The notes beneath the pieces are model-generated. The model worked only from the letters and a program-made list of their open reading frames with translations, did no database searches and had not been told where the DNA came from. The position numbers and the translations under genes are program-made. Below, one piece after another: positions 5,073 to 38,770 of a stretch of DNA of 64,000 nucleotides. The stretch is from Oscillospiraceae bacterium (GTDB lineage: Bacteria; Bacillota; Clostridia; Oscillospirales; CAG-272): NCBI GenBank assembly GCA_015064855.1, contig SVRK01000002.1, forward strand, positions 117,256 to 181,255, in the 5' to 3' direction. Numbering within the stretch: the first letter of the stretch is position 1; every line of letters starts with the position of its first letter.

Positions 5073-7973
5073 TTAAACGTAAAATTCAGAGTCCCAAACC
5101 TCGACCCCAGAGCCCTCAAACACACTGTCAAGTCGCTCCCTTAGGTCTTCTCTTGTTATGCCCTTTTTCATAATTACTTGTAAAAATCCGCCACCGCCGG
5201 CACCACAAATCATCTTTCCGTCAATTAAATCATCAATAGATATAAATATTTGGTCGATACAAGTGTTTGTACTACCGCTATCCAGCTTTTTCGAAAGTTC
5301 CCAGTGTTGATTTAAAAGCTCGGCAAAAGCAGTTACATTGCCCTTTTCTAATGTCGCCTTCATAACCATAGAAAGCCTTTGAATTTCTGACAAGGCACTT
5401 ACAGATTGCTTGTTTGAGGCAATATATTTACCAACGACATCGCGCAAGAGGTTTCTTGCCAAGCGCCTTTGTCCTGTATAGATAATAGCATATCTTTTAT
5501 TAAGCTCATCTACTGTCGAATCTGAAATATTCAGTTCCACACACTTAACGTCTTGCTTTATGCCCTTTTCCGAATAAACAAATTTAAATCCCTTGGTAAG
5601 ACCTCCAACTTGATCTTGCCAGCCGCCTCCGGTTGACATAATCTGCTCCATCCACATTACTCTTTCGTAAATTTCCTCGTTTTGAAGCTTCTCACCGAAA
5701 AACTCGGCAAGTCCCTTGATGCAAGCCGCCGAAAGAATCGAGCTGGTACCAAGTCCGGAGCCACGCGGAATATCTATTGCACGAGTGGAAAGATATACAC
5801 CTCCGCCAACTCTTGTTAAAATGCTTTCAAGGTTTACCTCGCCTTTATGTGGGATAAGACCTGATGCTATAAGCGCTGACTTGTGAAGTGCGAATGGATC
5901 ACCCGGGTCTTGACAGCGTTGAAGCGCCTCGGTTGAATAAAATTCAGCACTGGCATCACTATCCGCGCTTGCCAAAACCACCTTTTTTTCATCAAGCCTT
6001 CTTACAATTACCTCTATAGGGAATTCGCCGTTCAGCTTTATTGCGGCATTGAGCACGTTTCCACCGTTTTCAATACAGTAAGGCGGTGTGTCCGACCAAC
6101 CGCCACCGAAATTTACTCTGACAGGAAGTCGTGTTTCTACCTCACCTTGTAAGATTTTCAAGCTTTGATTATAAAGCTCCTTAGTTTGAGTCTTTAACAT
6201 TGCTTGACAGATTATATCAAAGCATTTTTTCAAATATATTTCATTAGTATCATCAGCTATAAGCTGTGACAAGCAATAATATATTCTGATTTTTCTTGAA
6301 AACTGTTCAAGGCACGTGTCATCGAGCGAGTTGGCAATCTTTAAAAGATAATCAACTATTCTCTTTGCCACGCCATCTTTAAATATAGATTTAAGTGAAG
6401 ATAAATCATTTCTATTATCTATCGCCTCAAGTATTGTTTCAACCTTTATTCTGTCATCAAGCTTCGCCTGCCACATTGGAATTGCGCTTGTGTCAGCAAG
6501 GTTAAAGCTTTCAGCTAAAGAGAGTGCATTTTCTGATTTTCGCCCACCCAGTGTCGATTTTAGAGCCTCTTCGATAGTTTTGCATGGCACAAAAAGCTTG
6601 CTTGTCCAAAGTGGCTCATCAAGTTTTTCGCCCATCCACATTGTCTCTTTTGGGTTGTCGTCAACGCCATACATTCTAACAACGAATGTACCATCCTTAA
6701 GCTTAAGTCCGTGTAAAACAGTGTTGTCAGGAATCGTCTCGCCGGACAAGGTAACACCACTAATTACGCAATTTCTGCCAATTGTTGTGTTTCTGTGAAT
6801 GTAGCTGTCCTCAATATACGAACCGCGTCCCACCGTTGCATTCTTAACGCTTATATATGAATTAGAGGAGGCAAACGCTATGTTTTTACTATTTGTATTT
6901 ACATTGCTAGACCAATCAAGATACGCATATTCCGGCATATCCTTTGTCATAAGCTTTAAAAGCTCCTTGGTTGTGCCAAAATGTATAAACGAAGCAGGTG
7001 AAAAACGAAGCAAGCGCATTTTGTACCCGCTAAGCTTGTTCCATATTTGCTCTCTACATTTTTTTAGTTCAGGTGAAAATTCACCCTCGGGTGTTTCGTT
7101 ATAAAAGTCTTCAAGAGTAGATGATGATGCTAGCGGATAAAGAAAATCTGCATAGAATGATAGACGTACATGGTCGTTTACATACTCATTGAATTTCTTT
7201 TCCGTATCGACTAGAGAATAGAGGTCATTAAGAAGGTTTGCTTCAAAAACAACCGCCCCTGTGTCGATATCAACGTTATTATTCTTATCAACTGCACCAT
7301 ATTCTTCTAGCTTTTCAACGCTTTGCTTATGCAAAAATCTCTCAACGTCTCCATTTGAATTACCTAGGAAAACGCCATGATTCTTACCTGTTTGAACATT
7401 CTCCTTGATTGAAAGCGCCATGGCCCCCTTGGAGTAGAAATCGAGCTGTAAGGGATTAAAAAGAAGCAGAACGTCTCCCGAGCAAACGAGCATACCACTG
7501 CTCATTCTCGCAGGAACACCTGTCATTCCTATAATAAATTCGTCAAAAAGAGTCGAGCGTCGTCCGTCAAGAAGCTCACGCGGAACAGGTGAAAAGAGCT
7601 TTCCGCAAGCTGAATATTGAGGAACTCTTTTTGAGTCTCCGCCAGAGTGGATACAAAGAATTTTTATTCCTGTAAAATCATTACTGCCACGATGATTTGC
7701 TATGTATTTGAGCACATTCAAGGTCGCACCGCCTGAGCCAACACGTTTTCCGTCAGGGTCGGGAATGACAGCATAGTGAGTTTTACTTGGAAGCCTACCA
7801 GTCTTTAATCGGCTAGCAATTTGCAGACGATAAAAATCTGCCTGTGCTTCATTAGAGGCGGTCAAGACAATATAATCCCATAACGGATATTTTTCTTTTT
7901 TCAGCGACTTTTCATATTCCTCGTAAGAATCGATATACGATTGTCTTAAGAATAGGTTTTTGTATCTACGCAT
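5073..7973 (-). CDS. fkp: Bifunctional L-fucokinase / fucose-1-phosphate guanylyltransferase
   Basis: N-terminal DPDGKRVGSGGAT and HSGGDSKRVP pyrophosphorylase motifs. C-terminal GHMP kinase motifs LPVRVNFGGGWSDTPP, PRGSGLGTSS, GGGWQDQ and GAGGGGF. Start at 7973 (RBS GGAG) avoids overlap with rmlB. Confidence 0.9.
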   Translation of the reverse strand: MRRYKNLFLRQSYIDSYEEYEKSLKKEKYPLWDYIVLTASNEAQADFYRLQIASRLKTGRLPSKTHYAVIPDPDGKRVGSGGATLNVLKYIANHRGSNDFTGIKILCIHSGGDSKRVPQYSACGKLFSPVPRELLDGRRSTLFDEFIIGMTGVPARMSSGMLVCSGDVLLLFNPLQLDFYSKGAMALSIKENVQTGKNHGVFLGNSNGDVERFLHKQSVEKLEEYGAVDKNNNVDIDTGAVVFEANLLNDLYSLVDTEKKFNEYVNDHVRLSFYADFLYPLASSSTLEDFYNETPEGEFSPELKKCREQIWNKLSGYKMRLLRFSPASFIHFGTTKELLKLMTKDMPEYAYLDWSSNVNTNSKNIAFASSNSYISVKNATVGRGSYIEDSYIHRNTTIGRNCVISGVTLSGETIPDNTVLHGLKLKDGTFVVRMYGVDDNPKETMWMGEKLDEPLWTSKLFVPCKTIEEALKSTLGGRKSENALSLAESFNLADTSAIPMWQAKLDDRIKVETILEAIDNRNDLSSLKSIFKDGVAKRIVDYLLKIANSLDDTCLEQFSRKIRIYYCLSQLIADDTNEIYLKKCFDIICQAMLKTQTKELYNQSLKILQGEVETRLPVRVNFGGGWSDTPPYCIENGGNVLNAAIKLNGEFPIEVIVRRLDEKKVVLASADSDASAEFYSTEALQRCQDPGDPFALHKSALIASGLIPHKGEVNLESILTRVGGGVYLSTRAIDIPRGSGLGTSSILSAACIKGLAEFFGEKLQNEEIYERVMWMEQIMSTGGGWQDQVGGLTKGFKFVYSEKGIKQDVKCVELNISDSTVDELNKRYAIIYTGQRRLARNLLRDVVGKYIASNKQSVSALSEIQRLSMVMKATLEKGNVTAFAELLNQHWELSKKLDSGSTNTCIDQIFISIDDLIDGKMICGAGGGGFLQVIMKKGITREDLRERLDSVFEGSGVEVWDSEFYV

Positions 7974-25226: not shown

Positions 25227-27557
25227 TTATTTTGCTATTTTATCTGCCACAACTGAACCAATAATCTTTGGATATGTTTGGTAAACTGTAATTGTTGTGG
25301 TCTTTTCCTGAGTAGATGTGCTGTCGGCAAATTCGAAATTGGTTTCAAATTCACAAACGTCGCCCTTGTTTAATCTAATATGGCTATAATCTGTAACCTC
25401 TGTAACCTTATCGCCACTCTTTATACGAAGCTTGATGTTTTCCTTCATATCAGTTGCAATCTTGATTTCATACATACCACTTGCATCTACGTTAAATACG
25501 TATGTCATTGGACCCTTTGCTGAATCGTTTTTGGTAATAGTGATAGTATTTCCGTCAGTTTGCTCGGTTGTGCTTGAAGAAACTATATTTTGGTTAGAGC
25601 TTGCATTTAGTTCAGGGTCGTCGATTGTAAGAGTATATTTGGTGTCCTTCGCCAATTTCTTGTCAACATCCTTGCCACCACTTGTTTCCTTGTAGTCAAT
25701 GCCTAGTTCGATTGTGTATTCCTTATCTGCTTCAAGATGTGCATATGGTTTTACAACGTTTTTGCCATCCTCAACGTACTCGTTCACAATCTTTCCGTTT
25801 TCGTCCTTAACAGTGAAGACAAGCGTGTCCTTTTTGCTGTTTACGCTGAGTGAGAATGTGTGCTTTCCTGTATATTCAGCAGTAAATGAGTAAATCGCTT
25901 TCTTCGCATCAATATCTGATTGCAAAAGCTTAATTGTGTTGTCGCCCGCAACAAGCTTTGGCTCAACTATTGTAAGCTTATATTCCTTATCCTTTGTAAG
26001 GCCCTCGGTTTTCATTGAAAGCTTATAGGTCTTGCCAGCCTCGAGATTTGCATAATTCTTTCCAAGCTCTGTGCCATCAAGATTTAAGAACGTTACCTCT
26101 TTAATATCAGTGCTTGAAACTGAATATTTGCCAGAAACGCCTGCAACGAAGGTATATACTACTTTCTTAGCTGTGATTTGAGCTTCTGTAAACTTAATCT
26201 TTTCTTCTACGCCAATTTCAAAATATTGTTCTTTTACTTCAATCTTAGGAACAACTGATGTTGCAGTGCCGGTGATTGAAGCTTCCTTAGCAGAAACCTC
26301 AAATGTGTATACCACGTCGGCAACAAGGTCAAGGGTAAGTGTTTCGTCCTTGTCGTCCTTATCAGCAACTGCCACGCCGTCCTTGCCAACTACCTTTACA
26401 CCCTTAATGTTTGTTAATGTAAAGATATATTCACCAGTAACGGGAGTTGTATAGGTGTAATAGAACACCTTTGAATTTGTTATATCGTCTTTTGTAATTT
26501 TGTCAAGTGTATTGCTGCCGGAAGTCAAAACGCGGTCGTTGATAGAAATCTTAACGTCTCCAGCCTTTGAGCTAGCCTTAATGTTTATCTTGAGCTTGTA
26601 TTCCTTGTCCGCCTCAAAATATCTTTGAACTGCCTTATCGCCTGTGCCAAGCGCTTGTGATTCGCCATCGTTTATGATAATGCTTACAAGCTCTTCTTCT
26701 GTTGTATCAAAGAAGTAGTAGCCTTCATATTTAGGTGTAAAGGTGCGCTCAACGTAACCAAGCTCAATGTCCGCCTCAGTAAGAGCAATCTTGTTTGAGC
26801 CAGATGAAAGCGCGTTTGGATCTGTTTCCTCTTCCTTTTCTTCATCAGACTTTCCTTGATAATCGGAAACCATCTTCTCGATTTTTTCCATATCCGCAGG
26901 AACAACTCTACCGAATGCTGCGTTGTTTCCGTTGAAGCCGGTTTTCTCGTTTGCATATGTGCTATTATCGGTGATAATCATAAAATCTGTGGAGGATGAA
27001 TTGTATCCGTGTCCATTACGATTCATTGTAATGACACCATAGGTATGGGAAATCTTGTTTTCAAAGTTGTTGTCGTAATATTCACCCTTTATGCCCGGCT
27101 CAACATCAGCGGAGTGACCGTGCTCATCAGTTTCCTTTTCTGTTACGAAGGAAACGTATTTTGTGCTTGTGCTTGTGCTGATGGTCAAATATTTATCGGT
27201 AAAGTAGCCCTCTTCAACTCTTTTCTTAAAGTTTGCAACCGTTTCGGGTGCTTCCTCACCGTAAAGCTCAATTATAACCTTACCGTAATCAGCAAAATCA
27301 AGTTGAACAATATCTGTAACCTTAAAGTCGCCCTTTGATGGATCTATAAACTCTCTTGGAGTCGTTTTTGAGCATGCCTTAAAGATATGCACAAATCCAG
27401 TAACAAAGAGAATTGCTGCTAAAACTGCCACAACAATGTAAACAACGTTTAATGTTGTCTTTTTCACCTTTCTGCTTCTTTTGATTTTGTTTTTTTCAAC
27501 TTTAGCCACAGCTGTCTTGTCTGTGACATAGTTGGCGTTTTTCTTATTGTTTGCCAT
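25227..27557 (-). CDS. Membrane-anchored cyclophilin-like protein with ~5 C-terminal beta-sandwich (PPC-like) repeats
   Basis: One N-terminal TM helix; IELYGEEAPETVANF, HTYGVITM and AAFGRV cyclophilin motifs; then ~100-aa repeats (L..G.N.I...Y.F....G.Y). Confidence 0.75.
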   Translation of the reverse strand: MANNKKNANYVTDKTAVAKVEKNKIKRSRKVKKTTLNVVYIVVAVLAAILFVTGFVHIFKACSKTTPREFIDPSKGDFKVTDIVQLDFADYGKVIIELYGEEAPETVANFKKRVEEGYFTDKYLTISTSTSTKYVSFVTEKETDEHGHSADVEPGIKGEYYDNNFENKISHTYGVITMNRNGHGYNSSSTDFMIITDNSTYANEKTGFNGNNAAFGRVVPADMEKIEKMVSDYQGKSDEEKEEETDPNALSSGSNKIALTEADIELGYVERTFTPKYEGYYFFDTTEEELVSIIINDGESQALGTGDKAVQRYFEADKEYKLKINIKASSKAGDVKISINDRVLTSGSNTLDKITKDDITNSKVFYYTYTTPVTGEYIFTLTNIKGVKVVGKDGVAVADKDDKDETLTLDLVADVVYTFEVSAKEASITGTATSVVPKIEVKEQYFEIGVEEKIKFTEAQITAKKVVYTFVAGVSGKYSVSSTDIKEVTFLNLDGTELGKNYANLEAGKTYKLSMKTEGLTKDKEYKLTIVEPKLVAGDNTIKLLQSDIDAKKAIYSFTAEYTGKHTFSLSVNSKKDTLVFTVKDENGKIVNEYVEDGKNVVKPYAHLEADKEYTIELGIDYKETSGGKDVDKKLAKDTKYTLTIDDPELNASSNQNIVSSSTTEQTDGNTITITKNDSAKGPMTYVFNVDASGMYEIKIATDMKENIKLRIKSGDKVTEVTDYSHIRLNKGDVCEFETNFEFADSTSTQEKTTTITVYQTYPKIIGSVVADKIAK

Positions 27558-29320: not shown

Positions 29321-30660
29321 TGAAAACTCCTATTTGCGATTTTTTAAAGAAATATAATAATGATGGTTTTTCTCGCTTGCATATGCCGGGACATAAAGGC
29401 GTTTCATTTGTTGGATGCGAAGAATATGATTTAACCGAAATTTCAGGCGCAGACTCTCTTTATCATGCAAACGGAATTATAAAGGAGAGTGAAGAAAACG
29501 CAGCTTGTCTTTTTGGCACAAGTAAAACACTTTATTCAACCGAGGGTTCTTCTCTTTCTATTCGTGCTATTTGCTACCTTGCGAAGTCATATGCAACGTC
29601 AAACGGACTTGACAGCAATTACATTTTAGCAACAAGAAACGCTCACTCATCGTTTATTTCCGCTTCGGTCCTTTTAGATTTCTACATTGAATGGATGCAT
29701 AGCGAGGGCAACTACATTTGTAGTGAAATAAATGCGGAAATTTTAGAAAAACGCCTATCCTGTGTGGATAAAATGCCATTTGCGGTATATATTACAAGTC
29801 CTGACTATCTTGGAAATACTCTTGATATTTCCGGCATTTCAGCAGTTTGCAAAAAATATAATGTTCCGCTTTTAGTTGACAATGCCCATGGTGCGTATCT
29901 TAAATTTTTAGAAAAAAGCAAGCATCCTATTGATCTTGGAGCAACATTGTGTGTAGATTCCGCACACAAAACGCTTCCAGTTTTAACAGGCGGTGGGTAT
30001 TTGCACATAAGCAAGGACGCTCCTGCATTTTTTAAGGAGAATGCAAAAATTGCTTTGTCACTTTTTGGCTCAACCAGTCCATCATATTTGATTCTTAAAT
30101 CTTTAGACAATGCAAACAGATATATATCCAATGGATATAGAGAAAATTTATCCAAGACTATAAACAAAATCAGTAACCTTAAGTCCGCATTAATCGACAA
30201 TGGGTATAAAATTATCGGAGATGAAGGGTTAAAGCTAACCATCATGCCGAAGCCGTATGGCTATTATGGAAAAGAACTTTACGACATACTTTACTCTGAT
30301 GGCATAGTATGTGAATTTTGCGATCCTGATTTCTTGGTTATGATGTTCACTCCCGAAAGCACTGATTCCGACATTGAGCGTCTTAAATCCATTCTTCTCA
30401 ATTTACCAAAGAAAAACGCTATTTTAGACACTCCCCCGATCTTTTCTCTACCCAAAACGATATTTTCTACGAAAAACGCATATTTTATGCCGAGAGAAAA
30501 GGTTTCTGTTTCAGATGCCCCTGGTCGCGTTTTGGCTGTAACCAGCATCACCTGTCCTCCCGCTGTCAGCATAGCGGTTTGCGGTGAAGAAATCAGTGAA
30601 GATGTTATAAATGCTTGCAAATATTACGGCATAGACAGCTTTTACGTAATTAAAAATTAA
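29320..30660 (+). CDS. Orn/Lys/Arg decarboxylase family PLP enzyme
   Basis: RLHMPGHKG, TSPDYLG, VDNAHGA, DSAHKTLP, STSPSY. Confidence 0.88.
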   Translation: MKTPICDFLKKYNNDGFSRLHMPGHKGVSFVGCEEYDLTEISGADSLYHANGIIKESEENAACLFGTSKTLYSTEGSSLSIRAICYLAKSYATSNGLDSNYILATRNAHSSFISASVLLDFYIEWMHSEGNYICSEINAEILEKRLSCVDKMPFAVYITSPDYLGNTLDISGISAVCKKYNVPLLVDNAHGAYLKFLEKSKHPIDLGATLCVDSAHKTLPVLTGGGYLHISKDAPAFFKENAKIALSLFGSTSPSYLILKSLDNANRYISNGYRENLSKTINKISNLKSALIDNGYKIIGDEGLKLTIMPKPYGYYGKELYDILYSDGIVCEFCDPDFLVMMFTPESTDSDIERLKSILLNLPKKNAILDTPPIFSLPKTIFSTKNAYFMPREKVSVSDAPGRVLAVTSITCPPAVSIAVCGEEISEDVINACKYYGIDSFYVIKN

Positions 30661-30893
30661 ATTCACATAAAAAACCGAGAAGCTAAAAGGGTGATGTTCT
30701 TAGCGGAGAATTTGAAAATACCGCTAAGTGCGAGCATCGCATTTGACTAGTCAAATACTTTATGGGCTAAGCCCAAACCCATTATACGTGAACCCCCAAA
30801 GCTCATACTTCGCTTCGGGGAACCCCTACACAAGCAGAAAGAGATAACAAATCAGCTTATAGCCGAAATGTTATCTCTTTTTCTGTCGGTTTA

Positions 30894-31064
30894 ATGAAAT
30901 CGTTGCACGGCAACGATGAAATCTTCACTTCGTTCAGATGAAATCCAAGGACAAGCCTTGGATGAAATCAAATCCGTCTATAAACAATCCTGCGAAGCAG
31001 GATTTCATCGCGAAAGCGATTTCATCCACCAAAGGTGGATTTCACCCGTCGAAGACGGATTTGA
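30894..31064. repeat. Multi-hairpin REP-like palindromic array (ATGAAAT / ATTTCA units)
   Basis: Four ATGAAAT units separated by short hairpins, then three hairpin+ATTTCA units. tcaaatccgtc pairs with gacggatttga. Confidence 0.7.
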
Positions 31065-31112
31065 CTGCGTGTTCTCCGTTAAGGATAACACGCTAACGCC
31101 TCTCGGTATTTT

Positions 31113-32801
31113 TTATTTCTTTTTGAGCTTATCAATTTCTTGCTGCAGTTGTCCCATTTTTATAAAGAAGAATATTGAAGCCGGCCAGAAAAATAGCAAT
31201 AAAACTATTGCCAATATTAGATTTGTCATCTTTTCCTTTTCAAGCTCCTCTATTTTTGCCTTGTTTCCGAACTTCTTTGATGCAGGGTCAATATTGATTT
31301 CTTCAACACCAACAATAAAGCCGCTACCAGCAAACAAATCCTTCATACGAAGTGCTTCCTTTAAAGAAACGCGGTCAAGTATTGGAGTTTTTCCAAGAAG
31401 TGCACTCCAAGCTTGGTCCCAATTTTTTTCTGTTACATCCATTATAAAATCACGGCATTTATACTTTTGATTGGAGAATGAAACCATATTGAGCTTATAT
31501 TCTCTATACTTCAGTGGTCCCTTAAGATTGTTTTCCACCTCTGCCAAATCCATTTGCAGAACGCATCCAACCTTTTCAAAGGTTTGAACTATATAGTTAG
31601 CTTCACTTCTGTATAAGCCTTTTATAATCAGAGGTTTTTTACCTTCTACAAAAAGGCTTGCCTGATTCCATTCAAATCCAAGCCTCTCCTTTAAGAGATT
31701 GATGGTCTTGTTTTTGTTTGGACCGAACGAGCAAAATCTTACGTCATACAACGTATTATGCTCAAAAAGCGGTTCGGGGTCAGGCATCGGCTCCTTCTCC
31801 TCTACAATAGGGGTAGGGGTCACAATCTCCTCTACTCTTTGTGCTTGAATATATGTATCGGTATTATTCATCTGGCTTTGAAGAGAAGCCCCCGCCTTAA
31901 CCTTTTCATATCCAACTATTTTCTCAATTCCTCTAACGAGGTCAGGCATAAACCCAAGCTTTGACATGTCAAGCGCTTGAAGATGAGAAAACTCCTCCGG
32001 CAAATCATAAGGGTCCATATCCTTGTATGCAGGGATAAGTGTTTTTCTTTCGCCATTTTTCATCATGGTAAGGAATCTTGACCACTCGTTTTTCACCCAA
32101 ACGGCGTTGAAATATTCCGCTCTGGTGCCAAGAACGACCATAACCTTTGAGCTATTTAAAGCCGAAAAGATGTAAGGCTCGTATGCCGTGCCAAGCTTGT
32201 CTTCCAAGGTGATTCTTGCAAAGAAAACCTTGAAGCCCTCACGAGTTAGCTCGTGATAAAGCTCATTTGCATAAACCGAATCGTGCGTTCTTCTGCCATT
32301 TGAATCCGTTTCCTTATAACAAATAAATACGTCGAATGGCTCCTCGCGTCTTGATATATCTAGAATTCTTTTTTGAATATCATTTATTGTTTTTGCTTCA
32401 TCTTGATAGATTACTCTTTGAGAAATATCCGCGTATTTAAGAGCAGACTTATAATTGTCGTCATCAAAAACAGATGTCATTTGAGTACGGTTGATTGTTG
32501 GAACCCTTTTTCTCGTTTTTGGGTCTTCAACATACTCTATTCCATACTTACAAAGGACGATTGACCAATAGCTTTCAGCATCCTCGGGATTTTCGTTGAG
32601 AATTTGCTCATATATCGCCATCGCCTTATCGAACTCGTCATTTCTACGATAGTGGTTTGCTCTCTCGTACAAGCGTTCTATTTTATCATCGCTAATTTTG
32701 GGAAGCGTTTGTGAGCTTCCACAATAATCACAGGTCATAGTTGTAACGCCATCACTCGGCTCAAGTGACGCGCCACACATTTTACATTTAAAAACTGCCA
32801 T
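31113..32801 (-). CDS. Zn-ribbon-TPR-TIR protein with two ribosomal L7/L12-CTD-like domains and a C-terminal TM helix
   Basis: CKMC/CDYC ribbon; TPR-like helices; TIR FDVFICYKE...WVKNEW; YDVRFCSFGPNK..I..L...LG aligns with the L7/L12 CTD. Confidence 0.85.
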   Translation of the reverse strand: MAVFKCKMCGASLEPSDGVTTMTCDYCGSSQTLPKISDDKIERLYERANHYRRNDEFDKAMAIYEQILNENPEDAESYWSIVLCKYGIEYVEDPKTRKRVPTINRTQMTSVFDDDNYKSALKYADISQRVIYQDEAKTINDIQKRILDISRREEPFDVFICYKETDSNGRRTHDSVYANELYHELTREGFKVFFARITLEDKLGTAYEPYIFSALNSSKVMVVLGTRAEYFNAVWVKNEWSRFLTMMKNGERKTLIPAYKDMDPYDLPEEFSHLQALDMSKLGFMPDLVRGIEKIVGYEKVKAGASLQSQMNNTDTYIQAQRVEEIVTPTPIVEEKEPMPDPEPLFEHNTLYDVRFCSFGPNKNKTINLLKERLGFEWNQASLFVEGKKPLIIKGLYRSEANYIVQTFEKVGCVLQMDLAEVENNLKGPLKYREYKLNMVSFSNQKYKCRDFIMDVTEKNWDQAWSALLGKTPILDRVSLKEALRMKDLFAGSGFIVGVEEINIDPASKKFGNKAKIEELEKEKMTNLILAIVLLLFFWPASIFFFIKMGQLQQEIDKLKKK

Positions 32802-32818
32802 AAAATCTCCCTAGCTTA

Positions 32819-33538
32819 TCACTTCAAGATTTTACACTTTGTATTTCTTTCGGTAATATAATTAATTACCCCTTTAGCGTTTTCCTCTGCAAGAGCGAAA
32901 TTGCCATCATTAACTGCCGTTGCAAACTCGTTAAATGCAACTGTAATTTTATCTTCAACAACAGAAAGTGCATCATCCGACATAGGGTCACTGTATCTTA
33001 CAGCCTCATATACCTTTTTAGTAAGTGGTGCCATTTCTTCGTTTGATGCAGTATTTTTCATAAGAATTTCAGCATCAGCTGTTAGCATCTTAATGAACAT
33101 CGTTTTTACTTTTACTTTTTTGTCAACTGCCTCGATTGCCTCTATTGCCACCGCCGATTTCAAAACAACAAGTGCATTTACTACTAAAATCACAGCGCAA
33201 ATAATAATGCCGAGCCAATCAGGAATTTGAATAACGGCAAGACAAAGAGTAGCCACTATAAACATCAAAGCTATCGCGCCAATGGTGATTGGAATTAAAG
33301 AAATTCTATAAAACAATCTTCTTGGAGCGTCCGATTTTAAAACATAATATGAGCATGCAAGCTGACCTATAAACATAACTGTAATAAGTGAGTATGCTAC
33401 CCAAAACAATGGATTAAATTTAGTTCCACCATTTATTTCGTTTGGAGTAACGAAGGTGATTAAATTGAACAAGCCTAATACTAAAGCCCAGCCAATTTTA
33501 TAAATAATAAAATTCTTCTTATTCTTCATTATAGTCAC
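32819..33538 (-). CDS. Four-TM membrane protein with soluble C-terminal helical domain
   Basis: Four hydrophobic helices then LTADAE...EAVRYSDPMS; lies between the SPFH and TIR genes with 7-17 nt gaps. Confidence 0.75.
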   Translation of the reverse strand: MTIMKNKKNFIIYKIGWALVLGLFNLITFVTPNEINGGTKFNPLFWVAYSLITVMFIGQLACSYYVLKSDAPRRLFYRISLIPITIGAIALMFIVATLCLAVIQIPDWLGIIICAVILVVNALVVLKSAVAIEAIEAVDKKVKVKTMFIKMLTADAEILMKNTASNEEMAPLTKKVYEAVRYSDPMSDDALSVVEDKITVAFNEFATAVNDGNFALAEENAKGVINYITERNTKCKILK

Positions 33539-33545
33539 CTCTCAA

Positions 33546-34952
33546 TCAAACTCTTTCGCCACATTCAGAACAGAATTTTGCTCCGTTTGGAATCTCCGCA
33601 CTGCATTTTGCACACTTGCGTATCAAGGGTGCGCCGCATTCTTGACAGAATTTACCCTTTGATGTTTTCGCGCCACAGCTTGGACAAATTATTTCATTTT
33701 CACGTAGATTTACTATTTTCTCACCGCATTCAGGGCAGAATTTTGCTGTTGCGGGAACATTTGTTCCGCAACCGGAGCACTGCACTGTATCTAAAGGCTT
33801 ATCAGCGTTAAAGCCCTTAACCATATCTCCCATTTGATTACTGATTTGACCAGCAGCAGCCAATCCAACGCCCAAGCCAACGATGTCGCCTGTAACTCCT
33901 CCGCCACCGTTAGCAACCATAGTTCCAAGTCCCTCGGCATATGCCTTTTGAACGTCCGCTTGTAAAACATCCTTTTGATTGTAGCCTTGCGCTCTCATAA
34001 CCTCAGCTTGAGTTAAGCCCTGTGCTCTTGCTACCTCAACGTTAGCAAAGCCCTCCGCTTTAGCTGCCTCTGCCTTTGCTTGAGCAGCAATAAGCTCTCT
34101 TTCTGCTTGACGTTTTGCAATTTCGGTTTCAGTTGCTTGTTCTTCAAGCGTTATCTTTCTTTGTGCTGCAGTAACAGCTGCCTCGGACTCTGCTTTTGCA
34201 GTTCTAATAAGAGTTTCTGCCTCGACATATTTGGTTTGCAGATTGATTGTATGTAATTCACGTATACGGTCAAAAGCCTTACTGTCGGGTAGGCTAATTG
34301 TTGTAACGTAAAATTGAGGAATTGTAAGACCATATTCCTCAAAGCCGGGAATTAGCTTTTTGCGAAGTCCCTCGGAAAGCTCAGGAAGTCTCTCGTCGAT
34401 TTCAAGCAGGTCAATGCCCTCCGACTTTATAGCACTTGCCAAATGCGCTTTAACCTCGGTAGAAATCAAAGGACGGAACGAGCTTTGAATTGATTGTGTG
34501 AAGCCACTCTTGTCATTCCAAGCGATGCCCTTCATTGTGCCTACCAATTTCACAAGCAGCTTACGTGAGTCGGCTACTGCCAAGTTAAGCTCACCAGATG
34601 CGCCGATTTCAACCGGAACACCATAGGTTGGCTCAATAAAGCGAACGCGTTCAGGAGTTCCCCATTTGAATCCCATTTGAACAGTCTTATTGATAAAATA
34701 AACCTCACAATGGAACGGTGTTTTTCCACCCGTTACAACGTTCAATGCCTTTCCAATCAAAGGAATATTCTGTGTTTCAAGAGTATGTCTTCCTGGGCCA
34801 AAAAGGTCAAGTGCTTGACCATTCAAAAAAAAGATTGCCTCTTGTGATTCATGAACGATAAGCTGTGACATCGTATTGAAATCTTCTTTAGGATGCTTCC
34901 AAATAAACGTGCTATTATCGCCCTCATATTTAATAATATCTGCTATTGCCAA
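33546..34952 (-). CDS. SPFH/Band-7 domain protein with C-terminal double zinc ribbons
   Basis: TTG start; SQLIVHESQEAIF..G...LFGPGRHTL, FHCEVYFIN and KWGT; coiled coil; CSGC/CPEC/CPSC/CQEC/CAKC/CSEC ribbons. Confidence 0.88.
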   Translation of the reverse strand: MAIADIIKYEGDNSTFIWKHPKEDFNTMSQLIVHESQEAIFFLNGQALDLFGPGRHTLETQNIPLIGKALNVVTGGKTPFHCEVYFINKTVQMGFKWGTPERVRFIEPTYGVPVEIGASGELNLAVADSRKLLVKLVGTMKGIAWNDKSGFTQSIQSSFRPLISTEVKAHLASAIKSEGIDLLEIDERLPELSEGLRKKLIPGFEEYGLTIPQFYVTTISLPDSKAFDRIRELHTINLQTKYVEAETLIRTAKAESEAAVTAAQRKITLEEQATETEIAKRQAERELIAAQAKAEAAKAEGFANVEVARAQGLTQAEVMRAQGYNQKDVLQADVQKAYAEGLGTMVANGGGGVTGDIVGLGVGLAAAGQISNQMGDMVKGFNADKPLDTVQCSGCGTNVPATAKFCPECGEKIVNLRENEIICPSCGAKTSKGKFCQECGAPLIRKCAKCSAEIPNGAKFCSECGERV

Positions 34953-34988
34953 AACAACCCCTTCTTTCTAATTAAAGTGTACATAATA

Positions 34989-35017
34989 ATTTTATCATAT
35001 TGTAATGCTTTTGTCAA
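34989..35017 (-). promoter_or_regulatory. Sigma-A promoter of the SPFH-TM-TIR operon
   Basis: Reverse complement TTGACA-17 nt-TAAAAT. Confidence 0.7.
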
Positions 35018-35025
35018 CAAAGAAA

Positions 35026-35050
35026 AAGCAACACGAAATCGTGTTGCTTT
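35026..35050. terminator. ddh terminator
   Basis: aaagcaacacg-aaat-cgtgttgcttt. Confidence 0.75.
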
Positions 35051-35054
35051 AGGC

Positions 35055-36038
35055 TTATAACAATTTTTCGCGAAGCTCTGCGCCTGTTTTTTGTGAGAGA
35101 TACGCAGGTGCTATATCAAAAACAGTCTTGCATCCAACTGCTCCCTCTTTGTTGAGTCTATATGCCGCACGAGCATAAGCAACAATGACAGATGCTGTAA
35201 ATTCAGGGTTTGAATCAAGTGTTATTTTATATTCGATAATATGCTTGTTTTCAAGGCTTTCACCGGTTCTACCACTACGTATAACAGTTCCACCGTGAGG
35301 AATTCCTGCGTGATTTTTCAAAAATTCTTCCTCCGAAATGAAGTTTACTGTTGTATCGTAATCAGCAAAGTAGTTTGGCATAGTTTTGATTTCATTTTCA
35401 ATTTTATCAAGGTCAGCATCTTCCTCCGCTACAACAAAACACTCTCTTGTGTGCTTTTCTCTTGTTGTTAGAGTTGGATTTTCTCCGTTTCTTACGGATG
35501 CAAGCGCCTTTTCAACAGGAACTGTATATTGCTTTGCGTTTTTTACGCCCTCTATTCTACGAATGGCATCGGAGTGACCTTGGCTAACGCCCTTTCCCCA
35601 AAATGTATAGTCGTTTCCGTCAACCAAAATGCAGTTTGCCATCAAGCGGTTAAGTGAAAACATACCGGGGTCCCAACCAACGGAAATTAAACCAATCTTG
35701 CCGCTTTCGTTACATGCCTTGTCCACGTTTGCAAAATGCTCGGGAATTTTTGCGTGAGTATCAAAGCTATCAACCACGTTAAAGTATTTTGCAAGATAAG
35801 GAGTTTGCACAGGCAAATCAGTTGCACTACCACCGCAAAGTATCATAACATCAATGTCATCAACCATTTTTATAGCGTCCTCTACCCTATAAACTGCGAC
35901 ACTGGGGTCGACTAATTTAACTTTTTCAGGGTCACGGCGTGTGAAAACCGCGACAAGCTTCATATCCTCATTTTGTCTTATTGCAAGCTCAACGCCTCTG
36001 CCTAAATTACCGTATCCGTATATTCCTATTCTTATCAC
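35055..36038 (-). CDS. ddh: meso-diaminopimelate dehydrogenase
   Basis: IGIYGYGNLGRG, CGGSATDL, DSFDTHA, GWDPG, GVSQGHSDA, SNPEFT; GTG start at 36038. Confidence 0.95.
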   Translation of the reverse strand: MIRIGIYGYGNLGRGVELAIRQNEDMKLVAVFTRRDPEKVKLVDPSVAVYRVEDAIKMVDDIDVMILCGGSATDLPVQTPYLAKYFNVVDSFDTHAKIPEHFANVDKACNESGKIGLISVGWDPGMFSLNRLMANCILVDGNDYTFWGKGVSQGHSDAIRRIEGVKNAKQYTVPVEKALASVRNGENPTLTTREKHTRECFVVAEEDADLDKIENEIKTMPNYFADYDTTVNFISEEEFLKNHAGIPHGGTVIRSGRTGESLENKHIIEYKITLDSNPEFTASVIVAYARAAYRLNKEGAVGCKTVFDIAPAYLSQKTGAELREKLL

Positions 36039-36130
36039 AAAATCACCTCTTCGGGAACGCAAATTGCCCTTTTTCTAATAAATATACTTTATTTTAGCAT
36101 ATAGATTTCTCATTTTCAATATTTTTTAAC

Positions 36131-36165
36131 AAAAAAAGCCAAGCACTTTCGCGCTTGGCTTTGTT
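36131..36165. terminator. Intrinsic terminator
   Basis: aaagccaagc-actttcgc-gcttggcttt hairpin. Confidence 0.7.
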
Positions 36166-36167
36166 TT

Positions 36168-37778
36168 TTATTCGGTCTTTAATCCATTGTAGGTTTTTCC
36201 GGTTGCAGTTGCAGCTGATAAACCATCACTCAAATAATAAATATCGTTATTATCGCGAACATATCCGCAGCAAACAATACTTGTGTCAAGATTGTTATCT
36301 CCCAATCCCGCAACCTTTATTTTGACAGATGCAAATTTTTCTTTGCTTGTGTTTGCATATACAGTTCCGGCTGCTGTCTTTATTTGTTCATCTTCAACCG
36401 TCAAAGGCGTTCCCACAAAAACTGATACAACCACACCATATTCAAGCTTAGTTGATGCTAACTCGTTATATTTTTCCAGTGCTTCAAAATTCACAGTATA
36501 GCTATAAACTATACCGCAATCTCCCTCCATAGCTACTGAATATCCCATATCGGTAAAGATTGGGGCGATAACTACCGGCTCTCCGTTTGCCGTTTTACAG
36601 TTTACACAATTTTCGTATACTGTGATGTTTGCAAAATAGTTAAGCTGGTCGTTTTCCCCATCTTTTAATGCTCTTGCAAAATCGTGTGTTGGGTTATCAA
36701 GTATTTCAACTGCACCGCATCCGCGAGCGCAACCAAATTGACAGCCATTGAGCACTTGCTCCTCATGTGTGTTGTCATAAAATGCACGGCATTTGTTGTA
36801 TCCACAAACTATTCTCCAACCACTTGTTGGTATATACTCATTATCTGTTTTTGAAGAATCCCACTCAACAAGCTCTGCGCCTGAACAAATAACTCTGTTG
36901 TACGTTGATTTTTCAATAAGTGCTTCCATTTGAGCGCGAGTACCAGTGAAGAAAATAACTCCGGTTGGCAAGCAAGCTGCGCTATCCCACCACGAGAAGG
37001 TTTCCATAGTAATGGAATCAACCTTGCTTAAAAACTGCTCAGGCATATAGAATTTAACGGATTGCTTAACCCAAGACATATTGTTTGTGCCGAGGTCAAT
37101 AAGAGATGCGCCAAAACGAAATTCCTTGAGCGATTCACCAAGCGTACCGTCAAGTGCTCTGTCCTCTACAGTTGTCATTTGATTTGAAAAAACAACCTTT
37201 TCAACACCTGCCGCTCCTGTAAAGGAGTCTTTTGGTAGAACAGCTGAAAAGCCATCCATAAATACAAGCTCTTTTAATGTTGATTTGTTTATAATAAGTG
37301 TTCCTATCGTAGTTACCTTTGGTGGGATATTAAGCTTTTCTAATTTTTTGTTAGCATAAAAGCAACCATATTCAAGCGTGTTAAGCTCGGAACTAGGTGA
37401 AAATTTAATTTCCACAAGATTATTCGTTTGTGACAAATCACCGCAGTTTGTAGCAATAGTAATGTTGTCAGGAACCTCTATTCTGATTATACTGTGCTTG
37501 TTATAAGCTGTGCCGAGTGCATCGTTGATAGGCTTGAAATTGTAGGAAAATTTTGTGTTATTTGACACAACATATTGAGCAGGATAAGTGTGATATTCAC
37601 CATTTGCATCAACAATCACAACCCTAGATGTTGTATCGGTGTTCATATTCGTTAAATCAATATTTGATATTGCTTCAACCTCACCAAATTCGTTAGATGT
37701 AGTGGCAGATACACCTATTGCAAAAGCAACACACAAAATCGTCACCAAAGTCATAAAAATTATAAATTTTCTTTTCAT
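36168..37778 (-). CDS. Secreted leucine-rich-repeat (BspA/LRR_5-like) surface protein
   Basis: Signal peptide MKRKFIIFM...AIGVSA; L..L.IPPKVTTIG repeats; Cys-containing C-terminal region. Start at 37778 behind AGGAG. Confidence 0.75.
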   Translation of the reverse strand: MKRKFIIFMTLVTILCVAFAIGVSATTSNEFGEVEAISNIDLTNMNTDTTSRVVIVDANGEYHTYPAQYVVSNNTKFSYNFKPINDALGTAYNKHSIIRIEVPDNITIATNCGDLSQTNNLVEIKFSPSSELNTLEYGCFYANKKLEKLNIPPKVTTIGTLIINKSTLKELVFMDGFSAVLPKDSFTGAAGVEKVVFSNQMTTVEDRALDGTLGESLKEFRFGASLIDLGTNNMSWVKQSVKFYMPEQFLSKVDSITMETFSWWDSAACLPTGVIFFTGTRAQMEALIEKSTYNRVICSGAELVEWDSSKTDNEYIPTSGWRIVCGYNKCRAFYDNTHEEQVLNGCQFGCARGCGAVEILDNPTHDFARALKDGENDQLNYFANITVYENCVNCKTANGEPVVIAPIFTDMGYSVAMEGDCGIVYSYTVNFEALEKYNELASTKLEYGVVVSVFVGTPLTVEDEQIKTAAGTVYANTSKEKFASVKIKVAGLGDNNLDTSIVCCGYVRDNNDIYYLSDGLSAATATGKTYNGLKTE

Positions 37779-37900
37779 TTTTAAATTCTCCTTTTGAACT
37801 ATTTGACTTTTCCTCAATTTTATGTTATAATCAAATGAAGCACAAATCAATCCATTATTTAACAAAATTTTAGCATTATTTAACATTTTACGGGGACAAT

Positions 37901-38770
37901 ATGGAAAATCGTTATCTTTCAACACTAACCAATGATAGCTACTTTAATTGGTGGGACATAAACCACAACAGCCGAGAATGTAGTTCTATGCCTCTGCTAG
38001 TCAATGTTGCCGCACGAGTAAACGCTGCTGAAAGCAGCACAAACTACAACAAACAAGGACGCCTTGATTATTATCTAATTTACATAATTTCCGGCTCTTT
38101 AACTGTAAAAACCAGACACGGGGGCGCCGATGCCTTTGAAAATGACCTTTTTATAATACCGCCAAAATCCTCATATGAAATAAAAACCAAGGATCTACCG
38201 TTAAGGTATTTATGTGTACATTTTACAGGCTCTGACGTGATAAAAATCTTAAACGAATATGAAATATCTCTTTTTCCCAAAATCAATAAATTAAGCTATA
38301 AAAATCATATGCTACTCCGTTTTAATACACTTTTTGACGGATTTGCAAAAAACGACTCCCTACGTGACAAGGAGCTTGCGCTTTTGCTTGAAAGACTTTT
38401 CATTGAAGCCTCTCGTGGAATCAAGAATGCAACCTCGGAAAAAGTATTACTCGCTAAATCAATAAGATTTATAAACGAAAATTATCCAACAAAAATAAGC
38501 ATTCCATATCTTGCAAAGCTTGAAAATATGTGTGTAACCTCATACAATATTTTATTCAAGGAGCAGGTTGGAATGGCGCCAACTAAATACATAATCAAGC
38601 TTCGCATTGAACACGCACGAGAGCTTTTGGAAAGCACCAATCTGCCAATTGAAGAAATAGGCTTATCGTGTGGATATCCCGATATAAATTTCTTTTCCAG
38701 AGTTTTCAAAAAATACGTTGGGGTTTCTCCGTCTAATTACAGAAAGCAGATTATCCCACTTAAAAATTAA
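37901..38770 (+). CDS. AraC family transcriptional regulator
   Basis: Cupin N-terminus; C-terminal F..VG..P..Y...R...A..LL and GYPDINFFSRVFKKYVGVSPSNYR. Confidence 0.93.
   Translation: MENRYLSTLTNDSYFNWWDINHNSRECSSMPLLVNVAARVNAAESSTNYNKQGRLDYYLIYIISGSLTVKTRHGGADAFENDLFIIPPKSSYEIKTKDLPLRYLCVHFTGSDVIKILNEYEISLFPKINKLSYKNHMLLRFNTLFDGFAKNDSLRDKELALLLERLFIEASRGIKNATSEKVLLAKSIRFINENYPTKISIPYLAKLENMCVTSYNILFKEQVGMAPTKYIIKLRIEHARELLESTNLPIEEIGLSCGYPDINFFSRVFKKYVGVSPSNYRKQIIPLKN

Follow-up and report, generated by a model that had tools for sequence, protein, structure and literature searches.

Three genes conserved as one unit

A 64,000-nucleotide stretch of an Oscillospiraceae genome (contig SVRK01000002.1 of assembly GCA_015064855.1; hereafter, the window) carries on its minus strand three adjacent genes that encode an SPFH protein, a protein with four transmembrane (TM) helices (the 4-TM protein), and a tail-anchored zinc-ribbon/TPR/TIR protein. 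The three open reading frames (ORFs) and the signals in front of them have the following window coordinates.

33546–34952, minus strand: gene 1, SPFH protein, 468 aa; ORF with a TTG start behind a GAAGGGG ribosome-binding site
32819–33538, minus strand: gene 2, 4-TM protein, 239 aa; ORF
31113–32801, minus strand: gene 3, tail-anchored zinc-ribbon/TPR/TIR protein, 562 aa; ORF
34989–35017, minus strand: operon promoter, TTGACA, 17 nt, TG-n-TAAAAT; 11 of 12 consensus matches and an extended -10 TG
35025–35050, minus strand: terminator of the upstream diaminopimelate dehydrogenase gene; 11-pair stem with 5 GC pairs, followed by a T run

Genes 1 and 2 are separated by 7 nt, and genes 2 and 3 by 17 nt. 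As the database homologues of the 4-TM protein are 232–236 aa long, the ATG at 33529 is suggested as an alternative start of gene 2, which would give a product of 236 aa and a first gap of 16 nt. The promoter is the best promoter-like site within 30600–36300 and lies directly behind the terminator of the diaminopimelate dehydrogenase gene (DAPDH_C match, E = 3.8e-78), and this terminator is the 5′ boundary of the three-gene unit. An earlier reading of the DNA letters, made without database searches (the sequence-only reading), had claimed that the trio has its own promoter and spacings of 7 and 17 nt, and the consensus matches and ORF coordinates bear this out. The GC content of the operon (~0.40) is the same as that of its surroundings. 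The window genome (2.02 Mb, 96% complete) holds one copy of each gene of the trio, and metatranscriptome coverage consisted of one 337-nt contig only, located on the TIR gene.

The three genes are one conserved unit that is widely shared among gut Clostridia. The gene-neighbourhood survey that the sequence-only reading had proposed was run over 79 related loci from species-representative genomes, including gut and rumen Oscillospiraceae, Acutalibacteraceae, Lachnospiraceae, Anaerovoracaceae, Christensenellales, and others. In 57 of these loci, homologues of the SPFH and 4-TM genes directly adjoin the TIR gene in the same orientation, and of the 33 loci that extend 3 kb or more to each side, 29 have an SPFH or 4-TM gene next to the TIR gene. 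The usual order in relatives is SPFH, 4-TM, TIR, and a tyrosine recombinase is the sole other gene family conserved beside the trio. Because the arrangement recurs in dozens of genera, it is far beyond chance.

The same linkage is seen at the level of whole genomes. Among 151 genomes spread evenly over the order to which the window belongs, 17 carry the TIR head (the conserved N-terminal module of gene 3, described below), 16 carry the 4-TM gene, and 13 carry both, with four having only the former and three only the latter (odds ratio = 142, p = 6e-13). Genomes with three to seven TIR paralogues still have a single 4-TM gene, which fits one platform serving several TIR proteins. The head is thus carried by ~11% of the sampled genomes, in 16 of 97 genera, and heads from different bacterial families are ~75% identical; this patchy distribution together with the high identity across families is most easily explained by horizontal spread. 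No match to the trio was found in 50,697 phage records or in 72,556 plasmid records, and two of 2.9 million viral contigs matched. In a genome of the same family without the trio (G049), the neighbour genes are not syntenic, so no boundaries of an insertion could be drawn.

Domain architecture of the three proteins

The product of gene 1 matches Band_7_1 (PF13421) over residues 23–224 (E = 1.8e-37, 129.5 bits, cut-off 24), and the gene is the sole Band_7_1 gene of the window genome. The match confirms the SPFH assignment of the sequence-only reading, which had described the protein as carrying double zinc ribbons; the number of ribbons has to be corrected, as three CxxC...CxxC units are visible in the translation. 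They follow a Gly/Ala-rich low-complexity linker at residues 340–385, which was read from the translation.

33552–33791, minus strand: three C-terminal zinc ribbons of the SPFH protein, residues 388–467; DZR E = 8.6e-16, Zn_Ribbon_1 E = 1.1e-13

A hydropathy scan revealed no hydrophobic segment in this protein, which is of the soluble YdjI/SamI type without its own membrane anchor. Among the control genomes, Band_7_1 was also matched in Bacillus subtilis, and this match is presumably YdjI. Several SPFH frames in relatives have other ends. Candidate fusions carry an N-terminal extension that resembles a Ser/Thr kinase (GSGGFGTVYK..HRDIKDDN; L003, 4548–7238), a TetR-like helix-turn-helix (L040, 1838–3847), or an array of extra zinc ribbons (L081, 1152–3068), and the SPFH protein of G104 (L105, 5392–8167) ends in a SHOCT-like peptide, not in zinc ribbons.

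The product of gene 2 has hydrophobic helices at approximately residues 10–28, 44–62, 80–100, and 108–126, three of them strong and one weaker, in agreement with the earlier description of a 4-TM protein. They are followed by a conserved, helical, cytoplasmic C-terminal domain of ~100 residues. The motifs RYSDPMS and, near the C terminus, ERNxKCKxLK are invariant. No Pfam, NCBIfam, or PADLOC family matches the protein, and none of its 739 homologues carries a Pfam domain. In two genomes (G104 and G064), the open frames over the 4-TM match are longer, with 574 and 552 aa. An SPFH/4-TM fusion was considered for G104 and rejected, since the frame joins a 4-TM protein to a TM helix and an ectodomain. 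This part of the G104 locus (L105, 5392–8167) encodes, after the four helices, a further TM helix, TPR-like repeats, and a domain that by eye resembles DUF6273, and two TIR genes follow the fusion gene.

The product of gene 3 consists of a highly conserved head, two putative domains resembling the C-terminal domain (CTD) of ribosomal protein L7/L12, and a hydrophobic anchor.

31914–32801, minus strand: conserved N-terminal module, residues 1–296; AlphaFold2 predicted local distance difference test (pLDDT) 90.7, predicted template modelling score (pTM) 0.83
31914–32336, minus strand: TIR domain, residues 156–296; TIR_2 (PF13676) at residues 158–281, E = 2.8e-13, 50.8 bits (cut-off 28)
32085–32099, minus strand: WxxxE motif WVKNE, W235–E239; position of the catalytic Glu in NAD-cleaving TIRs
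31539–31754, minus strand: first L7/L12-CTD-like domain, residues 350–421; Ribosomal_L12 (PF00542) E = 3.9e-4, 21.1 bits, below the cut-off of 25.9
31299–31508, minus strand: second, more diverged L12-CTD-like repeat, residues 432–501; full-length alignment to the first repeat, 15% identity to the bL12 CTD
31161–31223, minus strand: C-terminal hydrophobic anchor, residues 527–547, NLILAIVLLLFFWPASIFFFI; hydropathy 2.72

Domain matches place one zinc ribbon and one TPR at the N terminus, followed by TIR_2. The sequence-only reading of a zinc-ribbon/TPR/TIR protein with a C-terminal TM helix thus holds, and the two L12-like domains, which it did not mention, are to be added. Residues 1–296 are predicted to fold as a single unit, in which the zinc ribbon is followed by TPR-like helices, a beta-hairpin, a long helix, and the TIR domain. 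This model was built from a 36-sequence alignment (39–81% identity, with paralogues from whole genomes); the 150 best representatives from a search of 1.8 billion proteins were all ~75% identical in the head and added no diversity. The same module is ~75% identical in more than 8000 database proteins whose C termini are entirely different, and in a library clustered at 50% identity, at least 4085 clusters match it at E = 1e-30 or better.

When the head model was compared with the PDB by Foldseek, all ten matches at E ≤ 0.001 were TIR-domain structures. The top match is the NADase filament of AbTir with a bound substrate analogue (7uxu_A; TM-score 0.80 on the target, root-mean-square deviation 2.8), followed in rank order by Hydra TRR-2, flax L7, MyD88, MAL, and the TIRs of SPARTA. 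By sequence, the best PDB match of the TIR domain is the TLR15/TLR2 TIR 7ylf (E = 2.4e-4), and in this alignment E239 falls on the conserved Glu of the TLR motif WCxYE. W235, V236, N238, E239, and W240 are invariant in the 36 relatives, which substantiates the earlier remark that the TIR domain keeps the WxxxE glutamate. Judged from these residues, the site looks catalytically competent. A whole-protein AlphaFold2 model from a 20-sequence alignment reached a pLDDT of 57, with 30–60 in the TIR region; it was excluded from the fold search and used solely for the secondary structure of the first L12-like repeat.

This repeat shows beta-alpha-alpha-beta-alpha-beta elements (pLDDT 66–80) and is 21% identical to the CTD of the genome's own bL12. 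The assignment of the second repeat is weak because the structure model is poor there. In relatives, the L12-like copies are 41–43% identical to the bL12 CTD and pass the family cut-off (P0024, 102.6 bits), which suggests that the two copies of the window protein are degenerate descendants. Whereas the copies of the relatives and the bL12 of the genome keep the signature GLGLKEAKxLVE, both domains of the window protein have lost it, and docking of translation GTPases by these domains therefore looks unlikely. Only 15 residues remain after the C-terminal anchor, and its FWP-containing segment is kept in the close relatives P0003, P0004, and P0046. Most family members are built differently: behind the TIR head come a TPR and coiled-coil region, a single TM helix, and a C-terminal domain of variable type that is predicted to lie outside. 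In relatives, these variable domains include DUF6273, an RCC1 propeller, BspA-type leucine-rich repeats (LRRs), and RHS repeats. The occurrence of one TIR head on many alternative tails suggests one platform serving several sensors.

Variants of the operon in relatives and surroundings of the locus

In approximately 20 related loci, an extra gene in the same orientation is located between the 4-TM and TIR genes. Of 22 such inserts, 14 appear to belong to conflict-type families, and the remainder includes several without a known family. Six inserts are of the HEPN family pEK499_p136, two of them above the Pfam cut-off, two below it, and two recognized by the RxxxxH motif only. Three belong to DUF2971, with a match to the PADLOC candidate PDC-S31 down to 6e-27, and two to DUF4365. 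Three more are short ThsB-like TIR proteins (PDC-S66, 4e-41; ThsB, 1e-24). Examples of inserts have the following coordinates in their loci.

L007, 5010–5489: inserted gene
L033, 7277–7945: inserted gene
L015, 6206–6715: inserted gene
L025, 7515–7967: inserted gene

An insert is present in eight of the 11 loci with an upstream recombinase. In ten of these loci, the tyrosine recombinase (Phage_integrase, E = 2e-30) is co-directional with the SPFH gene and lies 200–340 bp upstream of it, and in the eleventh, it lies 1.6 kb upstream. Inverted repeats of 18–34 nt occur in the gap between the recombinase and SPFH genes in eight of the ten (L004, L013, L015, L037, L046, L052, L070, and L073), where they bracket a segment of 116–250 bp and share the palindromic core ACATAAT-N5-ATTATGT. 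One such segment, from an Oscillospiraceae metagenome-assembled genome, contains a strong promoter that points away from the operon in the reference.

L052 (CP091722.1), 5355–5666: invertible segment with promoter TTTACA-17-TATAAT and TG, pointing away from the operon in the reference

Contigs of two public pig-gut runs contain the L052 segment in the inverted orientation, with the joints located at the repeats, and two other public runs contain it collinear with the reference. The presence of both orientations implies that the operon is switched on and off by DNA inversion in those relatives. For L013, there was too little read support for an inversion. The window operon has a fixed promoter and no recombinase.

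A further variant is found in G024 (L104, 1850–9708), in which genes for two zinc-ribbon/TPR/TM proteins that lack a TIR domain come after the SPFH and 4-TM genes. Co-directional genes downstream encode an 872-aa HerA-like ATPase (HerA_C, DUF87) and a 261-aa zinc-ribbon protein. The TIR-less trio suggests that the invariant core consists of the SPFH protein, the 4-TM protein, and a zinc-ribbon/TPR membrane protein, with the TIR domain as a very common add-on.

Two copies of an RNA motif adjoin each other behind the 3′ end of the operon.

30997–31067, minus strand: Gut-1 RNA motif (RF01706), 57.2 bits (gathering score 50); 46 nt 3′ of the TIR stop codon
30892–30973, plus strand: weaker, inverted second Gut-1 copy, 36.4 bits; adjoins the first copy

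Gut-1 RNA was considered as a component of the operon and rejected, because no such motif was present in nine related SPFH-TIR loci that were examined; it is probably incidental. The Gut-1 stretch reached a word depth of ~437 in a gut metatranscriptome, in many short contigs from different organisms, which points to a high abundance of Gut-1-like RNAs in that sample. Two large secreted or surface proteins are encoded in the region around the trio, and neither is conserved beside it in relatives.

36168–37925, minus strand: 585-aa BspA-type LRR protein
25227–27557, minus strand: 776-aa protein; N terminus cyclophilin-like by eye, then repeats

Comparison with known systems and proposed function

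The closest parallel to the trio in domain build is the PspA-SamGHI system (formerly YdjGHI) of B. subtilis. There, YdjI/SamI is a soluble SPFH protein that must be brought to the membrane by its partners (PMC8581546). SamG has cytoplasmic zinc ribbons and a TM helix, SamH is a membrane protein with a TPM domain, and SamI recruits PspA (PMC8581546, PMC13713150, PMC11237479). Comparing the two by domains, both have a Band_7_1 SPFH protein with one or more C-terminal zinc ribbons and no membrane segment, and in both, its gene is accompanied by those of two membrane proteins, one of which combines a zinc ribbon at the N terminus with a TM helix at the C terminus, while the other is a further integral membrane protein. 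However, the gene order of the trio is reversed, its 4-TM protein lacks the TPM domain of SamH, and its zinc-ribbon protein has TPR, TIR, and L12-like domains instead of the second ribbon and NTF2-like domain of SamG. There is no pspA gene in the operon, and neither PspA_IM30 nor Snf7 was matched in the 96%-complete window genome. By this analogy, the trio appears to be a SamGHI-type docking platform in outline and not a member of the SamGHI system.

The TIR domain is shared with Thoeris (ThsB plus ThsA) and with self-contained TIR NADase effectors such as AbTir and the TIR-APAZ protein of SPARTA, in which the same fold carries a catalytic-type Glu in WxxxE, and in relatives, ThsB-like TIR genes are located inside the operon. 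Unlike these anti-phage systems, the trio has no ThsA-type SIR2/Macro/SLOG effector, no SAVED, STING, or Argonaute partner, and no cyclase; its TIR domain is joined to a zinc-ribbon/TPR head, anchored in the membrane, and paired with an SPFH protein. ThsB models match the TIR protein with a best E of 4.4e-3 (14 bits), and ThcB4 reaches 28 bits against a cut-off of 220. As no ThsA is present and ThsB models match only at E = 4e-3, Thoeris is excluded. The sequence-only reading had recognized no named defence system here, and PADLOC agrees: neither the SPFH nor the 4-TM protein has a match, and the TIR protein gave only weak matches to PDC-S66 (1.6e-6) and ThsB (4.4e-3). Rst_2TM_1TM_TIR is a candidate defence system in which a TIR protein is encoded with small membrane proteins, and its models are, we assume, part of PADLOC-DB v2. 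To our knowledge, it has no SPFH component. If PADLOC indeed holds its models, this system is excluded as well.

Two further comparisons concern single proteins of the trio. Like the SPFH cages (HflK/C-FtsH, QmcA, and flotillins), the window SPFH protein has its SPFH domain followed by a coiled-coil region, with a weak sequence match to the coiled coil of QmcA (8z5g, E = 3e-3). Unlike them, it belongs to Band_7_1 and not to Band_7, and it has neither a TM helix or hairpin nor an NfeD or protease partner. Many relatives of the TIR protein resemble Toll-like receptors in having an outside domain, one TM helix, and an inside TIR, but the order is reversed, with the TIR at the N terminus, and the window member has no ectodomain. 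Full-text literature searches yielded no paper that links a TIR protein with an SPFH or Band-7 protein in such a way or that describes the trio. It is best filed as an undescribed combination of two known kinds, namely, TIR conflict enzymes and YdjI-type SPFH scaffolds.

The sequence-only reading had proposed that an SPFH ring gathers the TIR domains upon envelope or phage stress, and this is borne out in part, namely for the conserved unit, the WxxxE motif, and the lack of a match to a named defence system. We tentatively favour the view that an SPFH-docked TIR NADase system is encoded here, which would act at the membrane in defence or in a response to danger. This view is drawn from sequence features and seems to us credible, although somewhat short of probable. 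As a rule, bacterial TIR domains that have this Glu act as enzymes and not as adaptors. The evidence for a role in conflict is circumstantial and consists of the patchy distribution, the defence-type inserts, the phase-variable promoters in relatives, and the variant with a HerA ATPase. In such a device, the 4-TM protein and the zinc-ribbon/TPR head would dock an SPFH oligomer under the membrane, by analogy with SamGHI, and the SPFH platform would hold the TIR domains together but inactive. A trigger would then lead to head-to-tail assembly of the TIRs, as in the AbTir filament. Since the window member has no ectodomain, this trigger would be read in the cytoplasm or at the inner face of the membrane, possibly via the L12-like domains. 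The assembled TIRs would cleave NAD+, resulting in arrest or death of the cell or in a nucleotide signal, and the outcome would be an abortive-infection-like defence or a danger response.

A wider form of this proposal, which we regard as possible yet rather doubtful, would make the trio part of an undescribed membrane-platform immune system of gut Clostridia. One SPFH/4-TM platform would serve many TIR-head proteins with differing sensor tails, which may be cytoplasmic and L12-like here and extracellular LRR, RCC1, DUF6273, or RHS domains elsewhere. Triggered TIR heads would polymerize and burn NAD+, invertible promoters would provide bet-hedging, and HEPN, DUF2971, or DUF4365 cassettes would supply extra effectors.

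Several observations weigh against a defence role. The conserved Glu is necessary and not sufficient for NADase activity. MyD88 and MAL, adaptor TIRs without enzymatic activity, superpose well on the head model too, and a match to a predicted fold alone cannot tell an enzyme from an adaptor. The operon encodes no separate effector or nucleotide-sensor domain, and PADLOC reports no system match for the trio. In a comparison of 45 complete triads, the TIR head, the presumed effector, is the slowest-evolving part, with a median pairwise identity of 82% as against 55% for the SPFH protein and 43% for the 4-TM protein; such slow change is not typical of defence effectors or of arms-race proteins in general, and it would suit a housekeeping or scaffolding role too. 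Moreover, the neighbours of the trio in the window are metabolic genes, and 148 flank genes from 50 loci (two on each side) are mostly metabolic or housekeeping, with only a weak enrichment of defence-like genes. These number ~8–10 and include two reverse transcriptases, two Fic, two AAA_21/AriA-like, and two Cas1-like proteins as well as PDC-S04 matches, and the tyrosine recombinase is the sole recurrent flank family (14 of the 148 genes).

These points bear on a rival explanation that has a real, if minor, chance of being correct, in which the trio is a SamGHI-like scaffold for envelope stress or membrane maintenance that does not kill. Here, the TIR domain would be a self-assembling adaptor similar to MyD88 or MAL, or would give a mild metabolic signal, and the two membrane proteins would recruit the SPFH protein to the stressed membrane. 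In Pfam family and in build, low-complexity linker included, the SPFH protein agrees with YdjI/SamI (PMC8581546), and the logic of the partners is parallel: one protein carries a zinc ribbon at its N terminus and a TM helix at its C terminus, and a further membrane protein accompanies it. The TIR module shows a degree of conservation close to that of a housekeeping protein, its model also matches adaptor TIR filaments, the flanks are mostly housekeeping, and the existence of TIR-less trios means that the platform needs no TIR. However, the known output of SamGHI is missing, since the genome contains neither PspA nor a Snf7-type gene. The TPM domain of SamH and the NTF2-like domain of SamG are absent as well. 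Further points against a scaffold of this kind are the patchy distribution over 11% of the order's genomes, the invariant WxxxE, and the defence-type inserts and phase-variable promoters of the relatives.

It is improbable that the TIR protein is a surface receptor in the style of the Toll-like receptors, whose outside domain binds a phage, cell, or host ligand and thereby turns on the TIR. Most family members do have a variable C-terminal domain predicted outside, but the window protein lacks an ectodomain and its L12-like variable part is on the TIR side of the membrane, so this explanation cannot apply to the window locus. Least likely of all is that the three genes are unrelated neighbours that share a promoter, with the TIR gene standing alone. 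Some TIR paralogues are indeed found without an SPFH or 4-TM neighbour, in four of the 33 well-flanked loci and as dispersed copies in G133; yet one SPFH/4-TM pair is still present in the genomes of these lone paralogues, many genera preserve the adjacency and order of the genes, and the genes co-occur at the genome level (p = 6e-13). Chance adjacency is thus close to refuted. The remaining probability belongs to an explanation not yet thought of.

Should the trio prove to be an SPFH-docked TIR NADase system, its family would represent a very large TIR system of bacteria that no study has yet addressed, and the first case of an SPFH (flotillin-like) scaffold organizing an immune-type enzyme. 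It would join two separate fields, SPFH/Psp-type membrane surveillance and TIR/NAD+ immunity. If the trio is instead a scaffold for membrane maintenance, the novelty would lie in a TIR domain that acts as a structural adaptor in the membrane homeostasis of bacteria. The tail-less member found in the window is the simplest version of the family: it consists of three genes behind a fixed promoter, lacks an ectodomain, and has one putative catalytic residue.

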